Assembly: GCA_003176165.1 (NCBI GenBank)
Contig: PSRQ01000022.1
Coordinates: 1 to 48,564 of the forward strand
Reading direction: 5' to 3'
Origin: Candidatus Cerribacteria bacterium 'Amazon FNV 2010 28 9'
Lineage (GTDB): Bacteria; Patescibacteriota; Microgenomatia; UBA1400; UBA12028
DNA length: 48,564 nt
Made by a program: the position numbers and the translations under genes. Within the stretch, counting starts at the first letter, position 1, and every line of letters begins with the position of its first letter. The notes beneath the pieces are model-generated. The model was not told the origin of the DNA, searched no databases, and was given only the letters and a program-made list of their open reading frames with translations. Positions 9,279 through 42,389 of this stretch are shown one piece after another.

Positions 9279-10169
9279 ATGTTTATTGGGGGACATGTTA
9301 GCGCAGCGGGTGGAATTAGCTTGGCGTATGGACGAGCCAAAGAGATTGGGGGCAATGCCGTCCAAATTTTTTCTGCAAGTCCTCGTGTGTGGACACGTAA
9401 AGATATAGCACAAAGCGAAATTGATCGCTGCCTGCAATTTCAAAAAGAGTTGGGTATTACAAAAACAGTTATTCACGCCATTTATTTAGTCAATCTTGCC
9501 TCGGATAACAAAGAGTTGGTTGAAAAATCACGCAACTGTATTGAATTTGATTTACGTGTGGATGCGGCACTACATGGGAGTGGTGTTGTGGTGCATGTGG
9601 GCAGTCATCAAGGAAAAGGATTTGAGGCGGTCTTTGATCAGCTCGTACATGAGATTAAAATCATTCTTTCCAATACTCCTGAAAATTCCACCTTTCTCAT
9701 CGAAAATAGTGCAGGACAAAATGGAAAAATTGCGTCGGATTTGAGTGAAATTCGCCGTCTCATCGACGCAGTGGGTTCGCCTCGATTGGGGTGGTGCTTG
9801 GATACGTGTCATGCATTTTGCGCAGGATACGAGCTAGAGAACTCATTAAATTCTCCCCTTTCGCACCAACCACCCCTAACCCCTCCTTCGGAAGGAGGGG
9901 AATCAAAAAATGTAATTGAAGAAATTGATCGATTACAGTTGTGGGATACCCTGAAGGTCGTACATGTGAATGACTCGCGTGACTCGTTTGATAGTGGTCG
10001 TGATCGTCACGAAAATATTGGTGAGGGAAGCATCGGAGATGATGTGTTTCGTTCCTTTTTCTCGCATGAAAAGATCCGCACACTTCCGCTCATTATAGAA
10101 GTACCTGGGATTGATCACAAGAGTGGGCCGGATAAAGAGAACATAGAACGAGTGAAAAGGTTGATGTAA
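9279..10169 (+). CDS. nfo: endonuclease IV (AP endonuclease family 2)
   Basis: MFIGGHVSAAGG, IENSAGQ, LDTCHAFCAGY and HVNDS..RDRHENIGEG motifs. Confidence 0.9.
   Translation: MFIGGHVSAAGGISLAYGRAKEIGGNAVQIFSASPRVWTRKDIAQSEIDRCLQFQKELGITKTVIHAIYLVNLASDNKELVEKSRNCIEFDLRVDAALHGSGVVVHVGSHQGKGFEAVFDQLVHEIKIILSNTPENSTFLIENSAGQNGKIASDLSEIRRLIDAVGSPRLGWCLDTCHAFCAGYELENSLNSPLSHQPPLTPPSEGGESKNVIEEIDRLQLWDTLKVVHVNDSRDSFDSGRDRHENIGEGSIGDDVFRSFFSHEKIRTLPLIIEVPGIDHKSGPDKENIERVKRLM
9853..9903. repeat. CCCCTCC-type hairpin element inserted in frame in nfo
   Basis: TTCTCCCCTTTCG..CCACCCCTAA then CCCCTCCTT cgg AAGGAGGGG (9880-9900). The segment CCACCCC..GGAGGGG (about 9869-9901) matches 28/33 with 45874-45906. 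It encodes SPLSHQPPLTPPSEGGE. Confidence 0.7.
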
Positions 10170-10177
10170 TACTCAAC

Positions 10178-10283
10178 TTTGTCATCTCGACCGTGCCAAG
10201 TAATCTTGGCAGTGGAGAGATCCCTTTCAGATCCATCCGAAAGCGATTCCTCATCTGCGCTTCGCTCCGTTCGGAATGACAAG
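10178..10283 (+). repeat. MITE-like element about 100 bp long (GTCATC..GAATGAC termini)
   Basis: About 66 of the first 75 positions are identical to the reverse complement of 33281-33375. Lies in the nfo-folD spacer. Confidence 0.75.
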
Positions 10284-10324: not shown

Positions 10325-11311
10325 ATGAGTATTATTTTCGACGGAAAAGCATTCGCACACAAAAAAGAACTCCAACTCAAAAAAGAAGTTGATGATTTGC
10401 GTTCGAGGGGCATTGTTTTACGTGTCAAAACGTTCACGTTCAAAGAAGATGCGGGAAGTATGTTGTACACGCGACTCAAAAAAGAAGCAGCGGCACGCAT
10501 TGGCATCATGTACGAACCAGTTGAATATTCTCTTCACGACGATATTGAACAAATTGCTGAGGCTATTAAAACAGCAAGCGAAGAGAAGGGCATTACGGGG
10601 GTGATGGTGCAAAAACCGGCAAAAGCAGTGTTTAACCAGGAGAGCATTGTCAACAGAAATTTTGAGGATTGGTGGTCAACTTTGACCGCAGCGATCGATT
10701 CCAACAAAGATGTGGATTGTTTGACCAAAGAAAATCTGGAAAGAATCTACAATCTTTCTCCCCTTTCGAAGGGGAGAATACAAGAGGAGTTGGTGGATGG
10801 AGGGGAATACGTGATTCCTGCTACTGTACGAGCTTGTCTTGCAATTTTGGAAGAGGCAAAGCGTGTGTTGAGCATTTCAAACGAAGAATGGAAAAAGAAA
10901 AAAACGCTTGTTATTGGACGATCAGATATTGTGGGGAAACCGTTGGCAGCGTTGTTGAAACAGCGATGTGCAACAGTTGAGAACTGGGGAAGAAAAGAGT
11001 TGGAGAAAAGTATAAAGAAATTTTCAATTTTCAATTTTCAATTTTCAAAAAACATACATAAGAGAGATCATTTTTTAACAACTGACTTCGACATCATTAT
11101 TTCTGCCGTTGGGAAACCAAATTTAATCACAGGAACAAGGGTGAAAGAAGGGGCGATCGTCATCGACGTCGGTGCTCCAAAAGGTGATGTGGAGCGCGAA
11201 AGCGTGGAGTCTACAGCTTCTTTTCTTACTCCTGTTCCCGGTGGAGTTGGTCCCATGACTGTGATATGTTTAATGGAGAGTATTGTAGAGATTGGTAAGA
11301 ATTTTCTCTAA
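10325..11311 (+). CDS. folD: bifunctional methylenetetrahydrofolate dehydrogenase/cyclohydrolase
   Basis: VIGRSDIVGKPLAALL, ISAVGKP, VIDVG and LTPVPGGVGPMT motifs. At 328 aa it carries two extra segments. Confidence 0.9.
   Translation: MSIIFDGKAFAHKKELQLKKEVDDLRSRGIVLRVKTFTFKEDAGSMLYTRLKKEAAARIGIMYEPVEYSLHDDIEQIAEAIKTASEEKGITGVMVQKPAKAVFNQESIVNRNFEDWWSTLTAAIDSNKDVDCLTKENLERIYNLSPLSKGRIQEELVDGGEYVIPATVRACLAILEEAKRVLSISNEEWKKKKTLVIGRSDIVGKPLAALLKQRCATVENWGRKELEKSIKKFSIFNFQFSKNIHKRDHFLTTDFDIIISAVGKPNLITGTRVKEGAIVIDVGAPKGDVERESVESTASFLTPVPGGVGPMTVICLMESIVEIGKNFL
10753..10810. repeat. hairpin element in frame in folD
   Basis: TCTCCCCTT tcg AAGGGGAGA (10757-10777, 9-bp arms) plus a G-rich tail. 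It shares the 13-mer TTCTCCCCTTTCG with the nfo insert. Confidence 0.65.
11018..11051. repeat. tandem heptamer array AATTTTC x4 in frame in folD
   Basis: Copies at 11019-25, 11026-32, 11033-39 and 11040-46. It encodes FSIFNFQFS. Confidence 0.85.
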
Positions 11312-13276: not shown

Positions 13277-13354
13277 TTGTCATCCTGAGTTCCAACGACC
13301 TTTAAGAAGATCCTTCGCTTTTCTCTGCTCCGCAGAGAAGTCTCAGGATGACAG
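13277..13354. repeat. GTCATCC..GGATGAC palindromic element
   Basis: TGTCATCCTGAG ... CTCAGGATGACA termini. A second GATCCGCC gt GGCGGATC hairpin ending in GGGATGAC lies at 13385-13437. Confidence 0.65.
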
Positions 13355-20490: not shown

Positions 20491-20640
20491 AAAAATTTTC
20501 AATTCTCAATTTCCAGTACATATTTAAATGATGTAATGAATAGTTTGAATTATTGTAACATTGAAAATTCAATGCAAATTAAACATTGCATAATTGTAAA
20601 TTGCTCTTGACGCTTTTCGCTTCACGCTTTACGCTGTCAC
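20491..20640. repeat. block of degenerate tandem heptamer arrays in the nth-rdgB spacer
   Basis: TTCAATT CTCAATT (20491-20519). AACATTG AAAATTC AATGCAA ATTAAAC ATTGCAT AATTGTA AATTGCT (20557-20605). CTTGACG CTTTTCG CTTCACG CTTTACG CTGTCAC (20606-20640). Confidence 0.75.
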
Positions 20641-20642
20641 TC

Positions 20643-21254
20643 ATGACAGAACTTCTTTTGGCAACCAACAATGGCGGAAAAGCACGGGAGATCCAAACTA
20701 TTTTGCATCACCTAGGGATTGAAGATATCAAAATCCTTACTCTTTCAGATGTTCACTTAAGCGGATTTGCAGTCGAAGAAACAGGTCACACGTATGAGGA
20801 CAACGCTACGCTTAAAGCGAAAACGCTTGCGGATAAAACCAGGCATCTGACAATTGCGGATGATAGTGGCATTGAAGTCACCGCGTTGGGTCATAAACCG
20901 GGCGTCTATTCAGCGCGCTATGCGAAGGGGAGTGATACTGATCGTTGTCACAAATTGCTCAAAGAATTGGAAGGGAAAGAAGACCGCAGTGCGAAGTTTG
21001 TCTGTGTGATCGTGTACATTGATCCACATGGGAACGAGCGTCATGTTTTCCACGGAGAATGCAAAGGATTGATTGCTCCTGCTTTGCAAGGAACGCATGG
21101 GTTTGGATATGATCCACTTTTTGTGCCAGAAGGATATCATCAAACCATGGCAGAGCTTGGCAGTGACGTGAAGGATCAGATCAGTCATCGTGCAAAAGCA
21201 TTGCAAGCGTTTGCAACTTGGTGGAAAGGACACAAAAAGGTACATGAAACATAA
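20643..21254 (+). CDS. rdgB: non-canonical purine NTP pyrophosphatase (RdgB/HAM1)
   Basis: LLLATNNGGKAREI, IADDSGIEV and FGYDPLF motifs. ATG 20643 is preferred because the track start reads through the heptamer arrays. Confidence 0.88.
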   Translation: MTELLLATNNGGKAREIQTILHHLGIEDIKILTLSDVHLSGFAVEETGHTYEDNATLKAKTLADKTRHLTIADDSGIEVTALGHKPGVYSARYAKGSDTDRCHKLLKELEGKEDRSAKFVCVIVYIDPHGNERHVFHGECKGLIAPALQGTHGFGYDPLFVPEGYHQTMAELGSDVKDQISHRAKALQAFATWWKGHKKVHET

Positions 21255-24272: not shown

Positions 24273-25769
24273 ATGTCAAAGCGCTTCGCTCTTATCCTTT
24301 ATTTTCTTTTGCTTGTGGTTGCTATTTGTACAGTCGTTGTCGATATTCCGGCAACAGTGACCATTTCACTTGGAAAAGATAAAGTGTGTGCATCACTGCC
24401 GCATTCTGTGTGTTCACTTCTGCCACTCCCAAAAACAAAAGACATTCTGTTGACTCGTCCTCAGTTCAATGTAAACGTTGCTGGAATAAAGCTTTCACGC
24501 GACTTGGAAGTGAAACAAGGATTGGATATTGCGGGTGGAACGCAGGTTACACTTGCTGCAGATATGAGTCAAATTGCTCCGCCAGATCGAGATAAAGCAT
24601 TACAAACCGCCCAGCAAATCATTGAACGACGTATTAACTTGTATGGAGTGAGTGAGGCGACAGTGCAAACTGCCAAATCGACCAATGAGTACCGTCTCGT
24701 TGCAGAAATCCCAGGAATATCAGATAGCTCACAAGCTGTTCAACTTATTGGTTCGACCGCCCAACTTGATTTTCGCGAGTACAAGCCGACATCTGGATCG
24801 GGGAAGATTGCCAGTACTTCAGGAGTATTGGTCAGCGATTTTAAACCGACCGATCTTTCGGGAAAAGATTTAGCCAATGCCTCGGTTGCTTTCGATTCTC
24901 AAACAGGGAAGCCATATATTTCTCTCCAATTTACACCTGACGGAACCAAAAAATTCGCTGAGATTACCTCGCGCAATGTGGGAAAGCCATTGGCGATTTT
25001 TATTGATGACTACCCAATCACTATCCCAGTGGTTTCGCAGGCAATCACGACTGGTCAAGCACAAATTTCTGGTGACTTTAGCACAGATGATGCAAATAAC
25101 ATGAGTATTGCGTTAAATGCTGGCGCTCTTCCAGTTCCCATCTCAGTCATCGGACAACAGACCGTGGATGCAACGTTAGGGAACCAAGCAGTGCAACGAT
25201 CTGTGCAGGCAATTTTGATTGGTATCGGCATTATTTTCCTCTTTATGATCTTGCTCTATGATCTCAAAGGCTTGATTGCTGTCGCGTCGCTCTTACTGTA
25301 TGGATTGATCACGCTTGCACTGTATAAATTGATCCCGATCACACTCTCGCTTGCGGGAATTGCCGGTTTCCTCCTTTCGATGGGCATGGCTGTAGATACC
25401 AACATTTTGGTATTTGAGCGATTGAAGGAAGAGGAGCGAAAATCAATCAAGCGCACACGCGAACAATTGTTAAACCAAGCCTTTTCACGAGCTTGGAATT
25501 CAATTCGTGATGCTAACTTCACGACACTCATCACGTGTTTTGTGTTGTACAACCCGTTTGAGTGGGAGTTCTTAAACAGATCAGGGATGGTGCGGGGATT
25601 TGCACTCACACTGGCGCTTGGAATTTTCTTGAACATTCTCTGTGGGATGGGTGTGACGCGTGTGTTGATGACGATGTTTTACTCTCCTTTGTCATCCCGT
25701 AGGAGGCAGTCCGCCGATGAGGCGGCGAGCCTGCATACGGGATCCAGGCAAAAGAGCAACGAGAGATGA
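24273..25769 (+). CDS. secD: protein translocase subunit SecD (with repeat-encoded C-terminal tail)
   Basis: GLDIAGGTQVTL and the 6-TM C-terminal domain. The last roughly 26 aa are encoded by a palindromic element. Confidence 0.88.
   Translation: MSKRFALILYFLLLVVAICTVVVDIPATVTISLGKDKVCASLPHSVCSLLPLPKTKDILLTRPQFNVNVAGIKLSRDLEVKQGLDIAGGTQVTLAADMSQIAPPDRDKALQTAQQIIERRINLYGVSEATVQTAKSTNEYRLVAEIPGISDSSQAVQLIGSTAQLDFREYKPTSGSGKIASTSGVLVSDFKPTDLSGKDLANASVAFDSQTGKPYISLQFTPDGTKKFAEITSRNVGKPLAIFIDDYPITIPVVSQAITTGQAQISGDFSTDDANNMSIALNAGALPVPISVIGQQTVDATLGNQAVQRSVQAILIGIGIIFLFMILLYDLKGLIAVASLLLYGLITLALYKLIPITLSLAGIAGFLLSMGMAVDTNILVFERLKEEERKSIKRTREQLLNQAFSRAWNSIRDANFTTLITCFVLYNPFEWEFLNRSGMVRGFALTLALGIFLNILCGMGVTRVLMTMFYSPLSSRRRQSADEAASLHTGSRQKSNER
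25689..25750. repeat. GTCATCCCGTAGGAGGCAG..GCCTGCATACGGGATCC element at the secD 3' end
   Basis: Same element type as 41738-41783 in dnaX. Stems are CCCGTA/TACGGG and CCGCC/GGCGG. Confidence 0.7.
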
Positions 25770-32925: not shown

Positions 32926-33267
32926 CTACTGTCCATCTTCCACGTTTTTCCATCCGCCCATGACATGCATGTGAATGTGGTGGACGAGTTGGACTCCTTT
33001 TCCCACATTCATGACAAGTTTGTAGTTGTCAGCGATTCCCATTTTTTGAGCGACTTTGCGCGCGATTAACAACAACTTCGCATGAAAGTGTTCATCGCTC
33101 ATGTCCACTTGCTCCAATGTCTCGTATGGTTTTTTAGGAATGACCAATACATGGACAGGAGCACTGGGATGAATATCATTGATAGCGATAAACTCATCGT
33201 CTTCGTACTGAATGGTCGAAGGAAGTTCGCGGTTGATGATTTTGGTAAAAATGGAGTCGTTTGGCAT
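32926..33267 (-). CDS. HIT family (histidine triad) hydrolase
   Basis: HHIHMHVMGG histidine triad. ATG 33267 is preferred to the track start inside the MITE-like repeat. Confidence 0.85.
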   Translation of the reverse strand: MPNDSIFTKIINRELPSTIQYEDDEFIAINDIHPSAPVHVLVIPKKPYETLEQVDMSDEHFHAKLLLIARKVAQKMGIADNYKLVMNVGKGVQLVHHIHMHVMGGWKNVEDGQ

Positions 33268-33280
33268 AACTTCTTTTTCT

Positions 33281-33375
33281 TTGTCATTTCGAGCGAAGTC
33301 GAGAAATCGCTTTCGGATTTTTCCTGAAAGTGATCTCTCCACTGCCAAGATTACTTGGCGCGGTCAAGATGACAA
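33281..33375 (-). repeat. MITE-like element, inverted copy of 10178-10283
   Basis: Its reverse complement aligns with 10178-10283, sharing TTGTCATCT.GACCG.GCCAAGTAATCTTGGCAGTGGAGAGATC. Confidence 0.75.
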
Positions 33376-33382
33376 TGCTATT

Positions 33383-34297: not shown

Positions 34298-34367
34298 AAG
34301 AAACACAGAACAAGAGTTAAGAGGTAGGAAGTAAGAATCTTAACTCATAACTCTTATCTCTTAAATC
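34298..34367. repeat. ten tandem heptamers forming a self-complementary arm pair
   Basis: AAGAAAC ACAGAAC AAGAGTT AAGAGGT AGGAAGT AAGAATC TTAACTC ATAACTC TTATCTC TTAAATC. GAGTTAAGA / TCTTAACTC form a 9-bp stem. Confidence 0.7.
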
Positions 34368-34505
34368 AGTAGTGGGTCAGTTTGAAAGTCGTTTGCTGTG
34401 CTCTCAAAAGAAGTATACACTAAATGTGATACAATTCTGTTTTCTTGCTCATTAAAAAGTCACATACTGGGTCGGCGAAGAAATATCATTTCTCCAAGTA
34501 AAACA

Positions 34506-34773: not shown

Positions 34774-34990
34774 GTTGTTTCTTTTCTCCCTGTCTCACGG
34801 CAAAAATAAAGGTCACGGCACATATCCGATGTCTTGGCTAAAAATGTTTACTTGTTAAAGATCTATAAAAAAACTCCCTTCAGGTGGTGCCGTGCCGTGC
34901 ATTGGTAGCAGCGACACCTGAAGAGAGTCTTCAACGCACATTCAAACCTGGTTCATTTTCATGAACAACTCAATCTACCACGAAAACAAT

Positions 34991-35866
34991 TCATGAGTCA
35001 ATCATGAGCTTGATAATCTCCTCTATCATCCATTGATGATCCGCAATCCCAGCAACCATTGCAGGAGTAATACCCAACGATCGTTTTGGATTGAGGGATT
35101 GATGTGGTCTGCAGAAGTTGTAATACATGAAATGCAGTGCAACCGCAGCTTCTAGGTTTTCGACTTTCTTGGAAAAGCCATTCGTAAGACGAGTAAATCT
35201 GCGCATACTCATGCGCATCGTGAGATTCTGACGTTCAACAAAGCTTGTGGAGATAAATTTCTTCTTTGGTCTACCACTGATTTTCTTTTTCTCCATGCCG
35301 ATACATTCATGTGGCGAGTAACGACGTTCATGTTCCTCCGTTTCAAAGAAAATGCGACCATACTGCTTCTCAACCATCCCGTAGTGCACGCGCTTCCCGA
35401 AAGTACCTTGAACAGCGTTCTCGTAAGCACGTAGACCATCGGTGCTGAGCTGCACCTTATTCTTCAGTCTTGGTTCCAGATCTTCCATGAAAGTGTACGC
35501 AGACTCCTCATCTCGATGACCGATGAACCATGAAATTACGAGTTTTGAATCACTATCCAGTGCTACCCAGGTCCATATGGTTCCATATCCTTCCTTTCCT
35601 TGAAGGTCTTCAGGAAGGTTCTTTTGTTTGGCGTAACAAAATGACCAGATCTCATCACATTCAATCCGAGAGCAATGAAGGTTTACCAATACTTCATCTT
35701 GATATGCTGAACACGCCTTTCCAACCCGCACCAAAAGCCTCGTAACTGTTCCTTTGGCTGTTCCCGTCATTCGACAGGTGGCACGAATGGAATTGCCTTC
35801 TACAAGGCAAGAAAGGATCTGACATTGCTTCTCTTTACTCAAGACGTTCATCCCTATATTATACAT
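34991..35866 (-). CDS. IS1 family DDE transposase
   Basis: HTH NSIRATCRMTGTAKGTV. ECDEIWSF, LSTDGLRAY and FVERQNLTMRMSMRRFTRLTNGFSKKVENL match the IS1 InsB-type catalytic core. Alternative start ATG 35851. Confidence 0.8.
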   Translation of the reverse strand: MYNIGMNVLSKEKQCQILSCLVEGNSIRATCRMTGTAKGTVTRLLVRVGKACSAYQDEVLVNLHCSRIECDEIWSFCYAKQKNLPEDLQGKEGYGTIWTWVALDSDSKLVISWFIGHRDEESAYTFMEDLEPRLKNKVQLSTDGLRAYENAVQGTFGKRVHYGMVEKQYGRIFFETEEHERRYSPHECIGMEKKKISGRPKKKFISTSFVERQNLTMRMSMRRFTRLTNGFSKKVENLEAAVALHFMYYNFCRPHQSLNPKRSLGITPAMVAGIADHQWMIEEIIKLMIDS

Positions 35867-40573: not shown

Positions 40574-40604
40574 GCATTCTAGTGGCTAGTTTTCCTTGTT
40601 GTTT

Positions 40605-40633
40605 GAAAATTAAAAATTTGTAAATTGAAAATT
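40605..40633. repeat. left inverted heptamer arm flanking dnaX
   Basis: GAAAATT AAAAATT T GTAAATT GAAAATT, 27/29 identical to the reverse complement of 42317-42345. Confidence 0.85.
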
Positions 40634-40640
40634 GATTTGT

Positions 40641-42314
40641 ATGTCTTGGTATCGTCAATATCGACCACAAACTGTAGCTGGTCTTCACATCACTCCCGTG
40701 CGGGAGAATTTTTTACATATCTTGGAAAGTGGATCCTTTGCGCATGCGTACCTTCTCTGTGGTCCCAAAGGAACGGGGAAGACAAGCGGTGCACGGATAT
40801 TGGCAAAAGTGTTGAACTGTGAAAAAAATAGGGAAACAATACAGAGGGGATGGGTTGGGGATCAGGGGTTAGAAAAGAAAGCGGAAAGTGGAAAGGGGAA
40901 AACGCTTGACGCTAAACGCTTCACTCTCTGTGAGCCATGCAATGTATGTCCAACGTGTATCGCCATCACCAATGGAACGAGTATGTGTGTGACAGAAATG
41001 GATGCGGCGAGCAATCGTGGGATTGATGATATTCGAGAGTTGACCACGAGGGTGGGGCTTTCTCCAGCAGATGGAGTAGTCAGTGTGTACATTATTGATG
41101 AAGTGCATATGCTCACAACTGAGGCATTTAATGCCCTGTTGAAAGTGTTGGAAGAGCCACCACAGCACGTTGTCTTTATTTTAGCGACAACAGAGCGTCA
41201 CAAAGTTCCTGAGACGATTTTGTCCCGTTGTCAGCTGATCGCGTATCGCAAAGCCACTATTGATGAGGTATGGGTGGCCCTGCGCGCGATTGCAACGGCC
41301 GAAAGAATTGAGGCAAGTGATGAAGTGTTGCGACGGATCGCCACTCTTGCAGATGGGAGTTTACGTGATGGAGTGAAGTTGTTTGAGCAGGTTGGAAAAG
41401 GGAAAACGAGTGTCACCTTGGACGAAGTGAATAGCTCACTTGGAGAGGGAAATAGTGAGATTGTGGAACAATTCATCACTGCGTTAGCAAAAAAAGATAT
41501 CGAGCGCATCCTTACACTTTGTTCTACCCTTGAACAGGGAAGCATCAATGGAGCTCAGTTTCAAAAAGATGTTCTTTCGTCACTGCATGCACGACTCATT
41601 GGAGCCCCTGCAAAAAAGAATCCCCATTTTCCAACCTATGTGGCACTGTTACAAAAGTTAAACGTTGCTATTTCTCCCAATCTTCCCATTCCTTGGCTTC
41701 CATTTGAACTCGCAGCAATGGAGTGGTGTCTCTCCTCTTGTCATTCCGTAGGAGGCAGCGAAGCGTGCCTGCATACGGAATCCACTAAAACTGAACTCAA
41801 TTCGTTGTCTGAGCGAAAAAAGTCAAGCGATAAACCAGATGCAACATTCAAAAATGAGGAGCAAGCAAGTTCTACTCTTGATTCTTTACCCTTAACCCTT
41901 CCAAAAGAAAAAGAAGTTGTTGATGTAAAAAAAAAGAATGAAGAGCCTCTTGAGTTAGAAAGTATCCCCATTGATTTTCAAACATTTCTCTCCTCCTGGC
42001 ATAGTGTATTGCAGTTACTCAAAAGTAAAAACTCTTCACTGGAGGCATTATTACGCTCGACAAAGCCCACAGGTATTGCCGGAAAATATGTTGAAGTCAG
42101 TGTGTCATACAAATTTCACAAAGAGCAACTGGAATTGGATCGCAATTTACTTGTCATCGAAGATGTGTTGTTTGCGATTTATAAATTGAAAATGACGCTA
42201 CGTTTTTCACTCGTTGAAAAAGCAAAGCAAGCTGCCATTTCTCCTGACAGTAATTTGTCGGGAGTGGTACACGATGTATCGCTCGTCAAAGCTGCCGAAG
42301 ATGCATTCCTGTGA
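40641..42314 (+). CDS. dnaX: DNA polymerase III subunit gamma/tau
   Basis: WYRQYRPQT, GPKGTGKTS Walker A, the CEPCNVCPTC zinc module, and the SRC motif (ILSRCQ). Confidence 0.9.
   Translation: MSWYRQYRPQTVAGLHITPVRENFLHILESGSFAHAYLLCGPKGTGKTSGARILAKVLNCEKNRETIQRGWVGDQGLEKKAESGKGKTLDAKRFTLCEPCNVCPTCIAITNGTSMCVTEMDAASNRGIDDIRELTTRVGLSPADGVVSVYIIDEVHMLTTEAFNALLKVLEEPPQHVVFILATTERHKVPETILSRCQLIAYRKATIDEVWVALRAIATAERIEASDEVLRRIATLADGSLRDGVKLFEQVGKGKTSVTLDEVNSSLGEGNSEIVEQFITALAKKDIERILTLCSTLEQGSINGAQFQKDVLSSLHARLIGAPAKKNPHFPTYVALLQKLNVAISPNLPIPWLPFELAAMEWCLSSCHSVGGSEACLHTESTKTELNSLSERKKSSDKPDATFKNEEQASSTLDSLPLTLPKEKEVVDVKKKNEEPLELESIPIDFQTFLSSWHSVLQLLKSKNSSLEALLRSTKPTGIAGKYVEVSVSYKFHKEQLELDRNLLVIEDVLFAIYKLKMTLRFSLVEKAKQAAISPDSNLSGVVHDVSLVKAAEDAFL
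40881..40929. repeat. seven tandem heptamers in frame in the dnaX zinc-module loop
   Basis: GCGGAAA GTGGAAA GGGGAAA ACGCTTG ACGCTAA ACGCTTC ACTCTCT. CTTGACGCT..CGCTTCAC also occurs at 20606-20626. Confidence 0.65.
41738..41783. repeat. GTCATTCCGTAGGAGGCAG..GCCTGCATACGGAATCC element in frame in dnaX
   Basis: Same element type as the secD tail copy (25689-25750). It encodes CHSVGGSEACLHTES. Confidence 0.7.
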
Positions 42315-42316
42315 AA

Positions 42317-42345
42317 AATTTTCAATTTACGAATTTTCAATTTTC
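42317..42345. repeat. right inverted heptamer arm flanking dnaX
   Basis: AATTTTC AATTTAC G AATTTTC AATTTTC, starting 2 nt after the dnaX stop. Confidence 0.85.
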
Positions 42346-42389
42346 ATTCGTCGTGTTACCATAGCGCTGTTAAAAGAAAAAGGAGTCGT

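Follow-up and report, generated by a model that had tools for sequence, protein, structure and literature searches.

Rickettsia palindromic elements (RPEs) are described, in the accounts of them given in PMC10969869 and PMC3733652, as palindromes lying in frame in unrelated housekeeping genes, within segments compatible with the fold of the protein (Ogata et al., 2000). Repetitive extragenic palindromes (REPs) that lie within genes have been reported from genes for the synthesis and repair of DNA, as well as from C-termini, and were argued to sit in linkers or loops (Di Nocera et al., 2013; PMC3733652). Among repeats of 5–11 nt, heptanucleotides are the commonest, and their place is often just upstream of a start codon, arrays of TAACTGA being known from Beggiatoaceae, Cyanobacteria and Bacteroidetes (MacGregor, 2015; PMC4679880), and an excess of 7 nt repeats was noted by Mrazek et al. 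(as cited in PMC4679880). Here we consider dnaX, the gene for DNA polymerase III gamma/tau, in one 48.5 kb stretch of genome (contig PSRQ01000022.1, 48 564 nt, referred to below as the window) from a candidate-phyla-radiation (Patescibacteria/Microgenomates-like) bacterium. The first-pass annotation had proposed that this gene carries two different repeat insertions in frame, and repeats of intergenic type are indeed read in frame within it: part of the array in its zinc-module loop matches an array 5' of rdgB, the palindrome in its linker has a second copy in the window and an intergenic copy on an unrelated contig, and folD offers a parallel case. The matches go beyond what local composition produces, as shuffle and other-lag controls were exceeded. 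On balance, we consider it probable that this genome has several families of very small non-coding repeats which are tolerated in disordered segments of genes.

The dnaX coding sequence (40641..42314, + strand) is an intact frame of 557 aa; the enclosing open reading frame (ORF) is 40632..42314, and the start was taken at ATG 40641, matching relatives (MSWYR...). Its top homologues, from Woesebacteria and the Patescibacteria group, are named DNA polymerase III subunit gamma/tau, the closest being 56% identical, and E. coli gamma/tau matches at E=9e-48. The zinc-module loop (40818..40940, +) extends from the Cys60 codon at 40818 to the Cys100 codon at 40938, with 39 residues in between. This loop had been called about 30 aa over-long, which stands by comparison with E. 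coli (window residues 63–96 occupy the place of E. coli gamma/tau residues 67–69 in the alignment, a net excess of ~31 aa) but not as a single insertion, since long loops are clade-wide: all 36 aligned clade relatives have loops of 16–45 aa, typically 25–28 aa. On a neighbour-joining tree the window sequence groups with P0002 and P0005 (loops of 25 and 28 aa) and exceeds the rest of its clade in loop length (39 versus 21–31 aa), the excess specific to the window over its nearest relatives being 11–14 aa, or 33–42 nt, roughly five to six 7 nt units. The AlphaFold predicted local distance difference test (pLDDT) score is 61–67 for loop residues 71–90 and above 90 in the flanks.

The best register within the loop gives eight units (40877–40932), GAAAGCG GAAAGTG GAAAGGG GAAAACG and then CTTGACG CTAAACG CTTCACT CTCTGTG. 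Seven consecutive heptamers had been read at 40881–40929; the tract is periodic, with 27 of 42 positions identical at a lag of 7 nt (lag-7), but it comprises two array types and eight units, not one array. Arm 1, of the GAAANNG type (40877..40904, +), encodes KAESGKGKT and, with a lag-7 identity of 17/21, ranks within the window's top four; the only part of the loop reported by Tandem Repeats Finder (TRF), 40877–40901, lies here (score 36). Arm 2, of the CTNNACG type (40905..40932, +), encodes LDAKRFTLC, and with its final units it extends over the conserved codons of L-x-EPC. Between the two arms a modest hairpin can form (AGCG/AGUG with CGCU; z=−2.2). The proposed likeness of the second half of the loop to the array 5' of rdgB was borne out, CTTGACGCTNNNCGCTTCAC occurring exactly at 20606 (20606–20625) and at 40905, with all 17 specified bases of the 20 nt pattern matching and no third site in the window even when two mismatches were allowed. 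None of 100 shuffles contained a match, which is a post hoc test as the pattern was derived from the pair; CGCT at period 7 is found in the window only at the rdgB and dnaX-loop loci, against 0.1 expected. The rdgB-upstream array (20606–20640), CTTGACG CTTTTCG CTTCACG CTTTACG CTGTCAC, ends 3 nt before the likely rdgB ATG at 20644, the Ham1 domain beginning at residue 23 of the listed rdgB ORF. Upstream of the heptamers, the zinc loop also contains a G-quadruplex-type motif, GGGGATGGGTTGGGGATCAGGGG (40846..40868, +), which encodes GWVGDQG; the window has three motifs of the form G3+N1-7 x4 versus 0.22 in shuffles, the other two being heptamer arrays at 47636–47659 and 47992–48016. The last heptamer unit of the loop includes the codon of an extra cysteine, Cys97 (TLCEPC; 40929–40931), which lies just before the zinc ligands and is peculiar to the window DnaX, relatives having S, V, L, Q or K.

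The linker after domain III contains a palindromic element (41730..41784, +), with TTGTCAT at 41738 and a hairpin at 41743–41781, that is read as SSCHSVGGSEACLHTES. A second copy (25682..25746, +) supplies the 27 aa C-terminal tail of SecD together with its stop codon. The pattern CATTCCGTAGGAGGCAG has two matches with three or fewer mismatches, at 41742 and 25693, versus 0.05 expected, and self-BLAST aligns 41730–41758 with 25682–25709 (93%) and 41763–41784 with 25725–25746 (91%). The linker element had been described as being of the type at the secD 3' end, read in a different frame. The second copy and the left arm agree with this description, the latter being translated as CHSVGGS in dnaX versus SSRRRQ in secD, whereas the right arms share one frame (LHTES in dnaX, LHTGS in secD) owing to centres that differ by 11 nt between the two palindromes (8 versus 19 nt). 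Both copies start exactly at the end of conserved protein, after EWCL of domain III in DnaX and after ...MFY in SecD; the SecD of the syntenic relative L123 stops 12 aa after the conserved ...FY, versus the 27 aa tail in the window. RNA folding gave −20.6 kcal/mol (z=−2.7) for the dnaX copy and −35.8 kcal/mol (z=−4.3) for the secD copy. One of the three sense frames of the palindrome contains TAG, and in both copies GTAG is followed by a stem of ~7 bp (GGCAGCG/CG-GCC), the predicted fold pairing CCGUA with UACGG such that the tag is not unpaired. Linker residues 368–437, which have AlphaFold pLDDT values below 50, include the palindrome, an A-run considered below and a third in-frame heptamer array, CTCTTGA TTCTTTA CCCTTAA CCCTTCC (41871..41903, +; lag-7 15/21), which encodes STLDSLPLTLP in this disordered segment.

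A canonical form of the palindrome, with perfect 15 bp ends TTGTCATTCCGTAGG...CCTACGGAATGACAA, lies between convergent genes adjoining rho on an unrelated metagenome contig (L131); the window copies retain only 8–9 bp of the terminal repeat and end ...GGRATCCA. The L131 copy was the one true element among 12 matches of a metagenome scan with the 19-mer left end, the other 11 being chance or coding, and a metagenome scan demanding both arms exact gave no matches. Scanning genome contigs with the 16-mer ATYCCGTAGGAGGCAG returned 119 matches, all of them single chance occurrences without the right arm, the pattern being too short for 596 Gb. Searches of the relatives L120–L126 by blastn-short found no copies of the elements, direct repeats were absent from the flanks of every palindrome copy inspected, and nothing but unrelated primers came of searching the literature with the element sequence. 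As far as seen, the palindrome subfamily appears to be specific to this genome. Three larger intergenic palindromes of the window (10179–10252, 13278–13353 and 33281–33378) start with TTTGTCATYYC, two of them also ending in GATGACA, and two are 89–94% identical in inverted orientation. The 75 nt repeat 33301–33375/10179–10252 was considered as a tRNA, with negative results from ARAGORN and Rfam, and is another element of the TTGTCAT type; the listed HIT ORF (32926..33348) is probably over-extended into one of these larger elements.

Regions with a lag-7 identity of at least 15/21 number 13 in the window, as against a mean of 0.34 (maximum 3) in 200 dinucleotide shuffles; at the same threshold the other lags from 2 to 13 gave 0–2 regions and the harmonic lag 14 gave five. 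Period-7 arrays are a trait of this genome and not a local accident. Most are intergenic or at gene ends, the exceptions being folD and the three tracts in dnaX. The dnaX gene itself is flanked by a 5' array of the TTGAAAA/GAAAATT type (40603..40636, +; TRF period 7, 4.6 copies; lag-7 16/21), which ends 5 nt before the ATG, and by a 3' AATTTTC array (42317..42346, +; also detected by TRF), which is its inverted copy: by self-BLAST 40604–40633 and 42317–42346 are 93% identical over 30 nt in inverted orientation, with 22/24 positions complementary. The external arms noted in the first-pass annotation are therefore present, as are all four repeat features that it counted on dnaX, but four is an undercount, the third linker array and the G-quadruplex motif having been missed. 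The AATTTTC family is represented at five window loci, including the one within folD, and 7 nt-periodic tracts directly before a start also occur at rdgB and nth. The idea that such leaders substitute for Shine–Dalgarno (SD) sites was dropped, many window genes being without SD anyway. An intergenic, adjacent inverted heptamer pair at 34309–34371 (AAGAGTT AAGAGGT... / ...TAACTC ATAACTC TTATCTC; hairpin z=−2.9) resembles a free-standing form of the dnaX-loop pair. Within 47231–48028, heptamer arrays of the GGGNNNN/CCCNNNN type, in inverted orientation, stand on either side of a PF05635 gene (23S rRNA intervening-sequence protein/bAvd-like; 47268..47636, − strand) and likewise of a 104 aa ORF, and two of these arrays are the G-quadruplex-type motifs mentioned above; the PF05635 gene follows dnaB here, as it does in L123.

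Two other genes of the window contain repeats in frame. In folD (10325–11311), a perfect AATTTTC x4 array (11015..11054, +; 100% matches by TRF) encodes KKFSIFNFQFSKN and splits the FolD C-terminal domain, where it lies in an insert with a net excess of 20 aa over FolD of the PDB; its GC content is 0.20 versus 0.42 for the gene, and because of this composition and the perfection of the four units the array is probably young. A second window-specific insert in the same gene contains a perfect 10 bp hairpin, TTCTCCCCTT-TCG-AAGGGGAGAA (10756..10778, +; fold z=−2.3), likewise in frame. The two inserts are unique among 18 sequences, being absent from 17 relatives, and FolD is unambiguously a case of the same process as dnaX. 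The nfo-like AP endonuclease gene contains in frame a hairpin repeat, CCACCCCTAACCCCTCCTTCGGAAGGAGGGG (9869..9900, +), whose other copy (45873–45904) lies in the 5' untranslated region (UTR) of dnaB; the copies are 87.5% identical over 32 nt by self-BLAST, and Pfam assigns the two products to AP_endonuc_2 and DnaB. This 32 nt repeat contains the hairpin CCCCTCCT...AGGAGGGG, a related hairpin is found at 496–527, and the GGAGGGG arm in the dnaB 5' UTR is a likely Shine–Dalgarno site, 11 nt before the ATG at 45915.

The dnaX DNA of seven relatives (L120–L126) was compared. L120, L121 and L122 have, in the same zinc loop, purine-arm/pyrimidine-arm heptamer pairs of their own, with an A-rich spacer in L120 and L121; the L120 loop reads GGCTACA GGCTACA GACCACA GACTACA ... 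CTGTTGC CTCTAGC CTGTCAC, and its unit GGCTACA occurs again in the linker of the same gene. These three loops are 39–45 aa long, and the hairpin z-scores of the four loop pairs, including that of the window, range from −1.2 to −3.7. L124 and L125, the nearest relatives with DNA, have no lag-7 arrays in 12–22 kb and have loops of 28 and 26 aa, and the loop of L126 is 16 aa. The array-bearing lineages do not form one clade on the neighbour-joining tree; heptamer pairs have accordingly enlarged this one permissive loop on several occasions. A 7 nt-periodic tract before the dnaX ATG is also present, with other units, in L120–L123 (lag-7 at least 15/21 in L120–L122, by eye in L123).

We propose that three repeat families would be at work in this genome: short arrays of degenerate 7 nt units, frequently paired in inverted orientation so that hairpins can form; a 45–65 nt palindromic element of the 'TTGTCAT...ATGACAA' type; and a CCCCTCC/GGAGGGG hairpin. 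Most copies would lie between genes, often directly at gene starts and ends, and a copy within a gene would persist only if its net length keeps the frame, the frame is free of stops and the segment tolerates extra residues. The tolerant segments of dnaX would be the exposed zinc-module loop and the disordered linker after domain III, where the repeats would be translated as the passenger peptides AESGKGKTLDAKRFTL, CHSVGGSEACLHTES and STLDSLPLTLP; the peptides predicted from repeats in dnaX and the other genes are CHSVGGSEACLHTES, AESGKGKTLDAKR and FSIFNFQFSK. The same filter could account for the repeats of folD, the nfo-like gene and the SecD tail. Since 7 shares no factor with 3, successive units of a 7 nt array run through every reading phase. 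To persist, an array must be made of units without stops and have a length that preserves the frame; the sense strand of AATTTTC contains no stop, but its complement GAAAATT yields TGA. This proposal has in its favour the match of repeats between coding and intergenic positions, the surplus of period-7 arrays, the lack of the FolD inserts in relatives, the shorter loops of relatives without arrays, the independent arrays that other lineages have in the same loop and the low-confidence or disordered structure at the sites. We infer in addition that the copies came in by insertion or were copied in, instead of growing where they are, and that they are neutral passengers. The heptamers probably spread by polymerase slippage together with copying between loci, and the palindrome probably by a transposase acting in trans, no such enzyme being linked to the palindrome here.

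Several observations weigh against this proposal. There is no empty-site allele, the closest DnaX being as distant as stated above, against which to define the boundaries of an insertion, target duplications or a direction of change. The palindrome is known from two copies in 48.5 kb of genome, and no REP-associated tyrosine transposase (RAYT) or other IS200-type (Y1) transposase was found when 50 of the window's 59 candidate ORFs were scanned with Pfam. Four lineages have heptamer pairs able to form hairpins in this one loop of dnaX, a recurrence that could reflect selection on nucleic-acid structure, not neutrality; the overlap of the last units of arm 2 with conserved codons may mean that part of this arm is ancestral coding sequence and that the array grew in place; and the position of the 5' array, common to relatives, hints at a function for the flanking arrays. 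An IS1-like DDE transposase ORF is present at 34991–35866 (291 aa, weak Pfam matches), with candidate 18 nt imperfect inverted ends at 34962 and 35964. It was rejected as the mobilizer, as these ends do not resemble the small repeats, which leaves a further point on the same side.

An alternative origin for the heptamers is growth in place by slippage in a 7 nt register followed by blurring through point mutation, in which case the likeness between loci would come from mutational bias and only the palindrome would have been inserted. The overlap of arm 2 with L-x-EPC, the similar CT-rich codons in which all five array-bearing loops end, the degeneracy of the units and the differing array sequences of the lineages would fit such growth, and 7 nt slippage has been proposed for the general excess of heptanucleotides (Mrazek et al., as cited in PMC4679880). 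We nevertheless regard it as unlikely, as specific units recur (AATTTTC at five sites, CTTGACGCT...CGCTTCAC at two, GGCTACA twice in the dnaX of L120) and the arms form inverted pairs, which are not a product of simple slippage. Less likely still is that the repeats are selected nucleic-acid signals, the loop hairpins or G-quadruplex pausing translation or marking mRNA for processing, and the flanking arrays bracketing the transcript for RNase III-type processing or acting as translation leaders. A hairpin-forming pair of differing sequence at the same loop in four lineages speaks for this idea, as do the tract of differing units right before the ATG in five dnaX genes and also at rdgB and nth, the complementarity of the dnaX flanks, the like bracketing of the PF05635 gene and the G-quadruplex motif; a translational role has moreover been proposed for TAACTGA repeats (PMC4679880). 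It is hard to reconcile with closest relatives that keep dnaX without the arrays, with modest fold z-scores, with flanks in L120 that are not visibly complementary on inspection, and with the presence of the same elements, lacking any Rfam match, in unrelated genes and tails. It is correspondingly improbable that some Patescibacteria lineages actively build or copy hairpin-forming 7 nt array pairs which are kept just before start codons, around genes and, in independent lineages, in the dnaX zinc loop for an action at the DNA or RNA level; were this so, the action could be transcript processing, translation pausing or the loading of cold-shock proteins, and the extra clamp-loader peptide would be a by-product of a nucleic-acid signal.

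The dnaX gene of E. coli undergoes programmed −1 frameshifting, and that of Thermus transcriptional slippage. It might thus be asked whether the palindrome is the stimulatory structure of a gamma/tau frameshift, given its position at the boundary of domain III and linker, the +1 frame TAG inside it, the −1 stop just after it and the presence in the gene of an in-phase A_AAA_AAG with a −1 stop. This last is an A9G run (41927..41936, +), a possible gamma/tau slippage site that is separate from the repeats: the −1 frame reads Lys-Lys-Glu and then UGA, ending as E. coli gamma does. What the E. coli site and this one share is an A9 run, placed in the linker after domain III, with an in-phase A_AAA_AAG and a Lys-Lys-Glu-stop reading; they are unlike in that the window site has neither an upstream SD-like element nor, by folding, a stable hairpin 3' of it. 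A slippage-type site was found in the linker of two of eight relatives examined, L125 having CGU AAA AAA AAA GUU with a −1 stop close by, and no such site in that of the six others. We disfavour the frameshift explanation of the palindrome, to which we give very little credence: no slippery heptamer lies beside its hairpin, the A9G site comes 150 nt further downstream and has no hairpin behind it, and the same element makes the SecD tail. The side observation of the A9G run leaves the repeats unexplained. Chance resemblance, in which low-complexity coding sequence rich in Lys, Glu and Gly merely looks periodic, might be suspected from the low TRF scores (36) and from the compositional bias of loop and linker in all relatives. 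It is refuted by the shuffle and other-lag controls, by the array-free relatives and by the exact second copy of the palindrome, and we consider it scarcely credible.

The gene order of this region is ybeY-dnaX-ybaB...dnaB, with secD-secF and a HIT-family gene upstream, and is syntenic with the contig of L123. The window contains no tRNA detectable by ARAGORN and no match to an Rfam family. The YbaB/EbfC gene 3' of dnaX (42390–42929) is an internal tandem duplication, 42498–42608 and 42756–42866 being 92% identical; its product is 179 aa in the window, L121, L123 and L126 and 93 aa in L125.

If tolerated passenger repeats are indeed the explanation, selfish DNA inside protein-coding genes, a pattern of Rickettsia and a small number of REP-rich bacteria, would be extended to the candidate phyla radiation, whose small genomes are usually called streamlined, and an essential replication protein could have its variable loops and linkers built from genome-specific repeats. 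Annotation would be affected, through ORFs extended spuriously, odd stretches of low complexity and linkers that misalign, and there would be a bearing on the use of indels as phylogenetic markers and on the origin of new peptide segments. The recurrent heptamer pairs of the loop, set beside array-free sister lineages, offer a natural comparison between neutral and functional repeats.

Cyanobacterial STRR sequences are heptanucleotide simple-sequence repeats. The arrays described here are like these and the TAACTGA repeats in being head-to-tail 7 nt arrays beyond chance expectation, mostly intergenic and often upstream of starts, with several unit types per genome; they are unlike them in being short (3–5 units), degenerate at 2–3 positions per unit and often arranged as inverted pairs. 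As 7 cannot be divided by 3, heptanucleotide repeats lie mainly between genes, whereas those of the window also lie in frame in essential genes, from which 7 nt units are normally excluded. A literature search combining 'heptanucleotide' with 'Patescibacteria' found nothing.

For the palindrome, comparison may be made with three classes of element. [quoted passage not shown] GTAG-tagged REPs have a G+C-rich stem-loop of 20–40 nt beside GTAG, which our element may share (here CC-GTAG-GAGGCAG...). They are defined by a stem of 5–13 bp, a loop of 2–20 nt and an unpaired GTAG, and number tens to thousands per genome, often as head-to-head dimers; here there are two single copies in 48.5 kb, GTAG is partly paired in a longer outer stem (CATTCCGTA/TACGGAAT), the ends resemble TTGTCAT...ATGACAA terminal repeats, and the RAYT (Y1) association of the class has no counterpart among the 50 of 59 candidate ORFs scanned. 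The RPEs of Rickettsia differ in being ~100–150 bp long with a conserved peptide, as against 55 nt (dnaX) and 65 nt (secD) with left arms in different frames, and the present host is a Patescibacterium; the two were compared by description, no sequence relation being expected. They are alike in being small palindromes of a small-genome bacterium that occur both between genes and in frame in unrelated housekeeping genes, here in the dnaX linker and the secD tail with an intergenic relative in L131, and by this analogy the pattern would seem to be a Rickettsia-like one, of a known kind.

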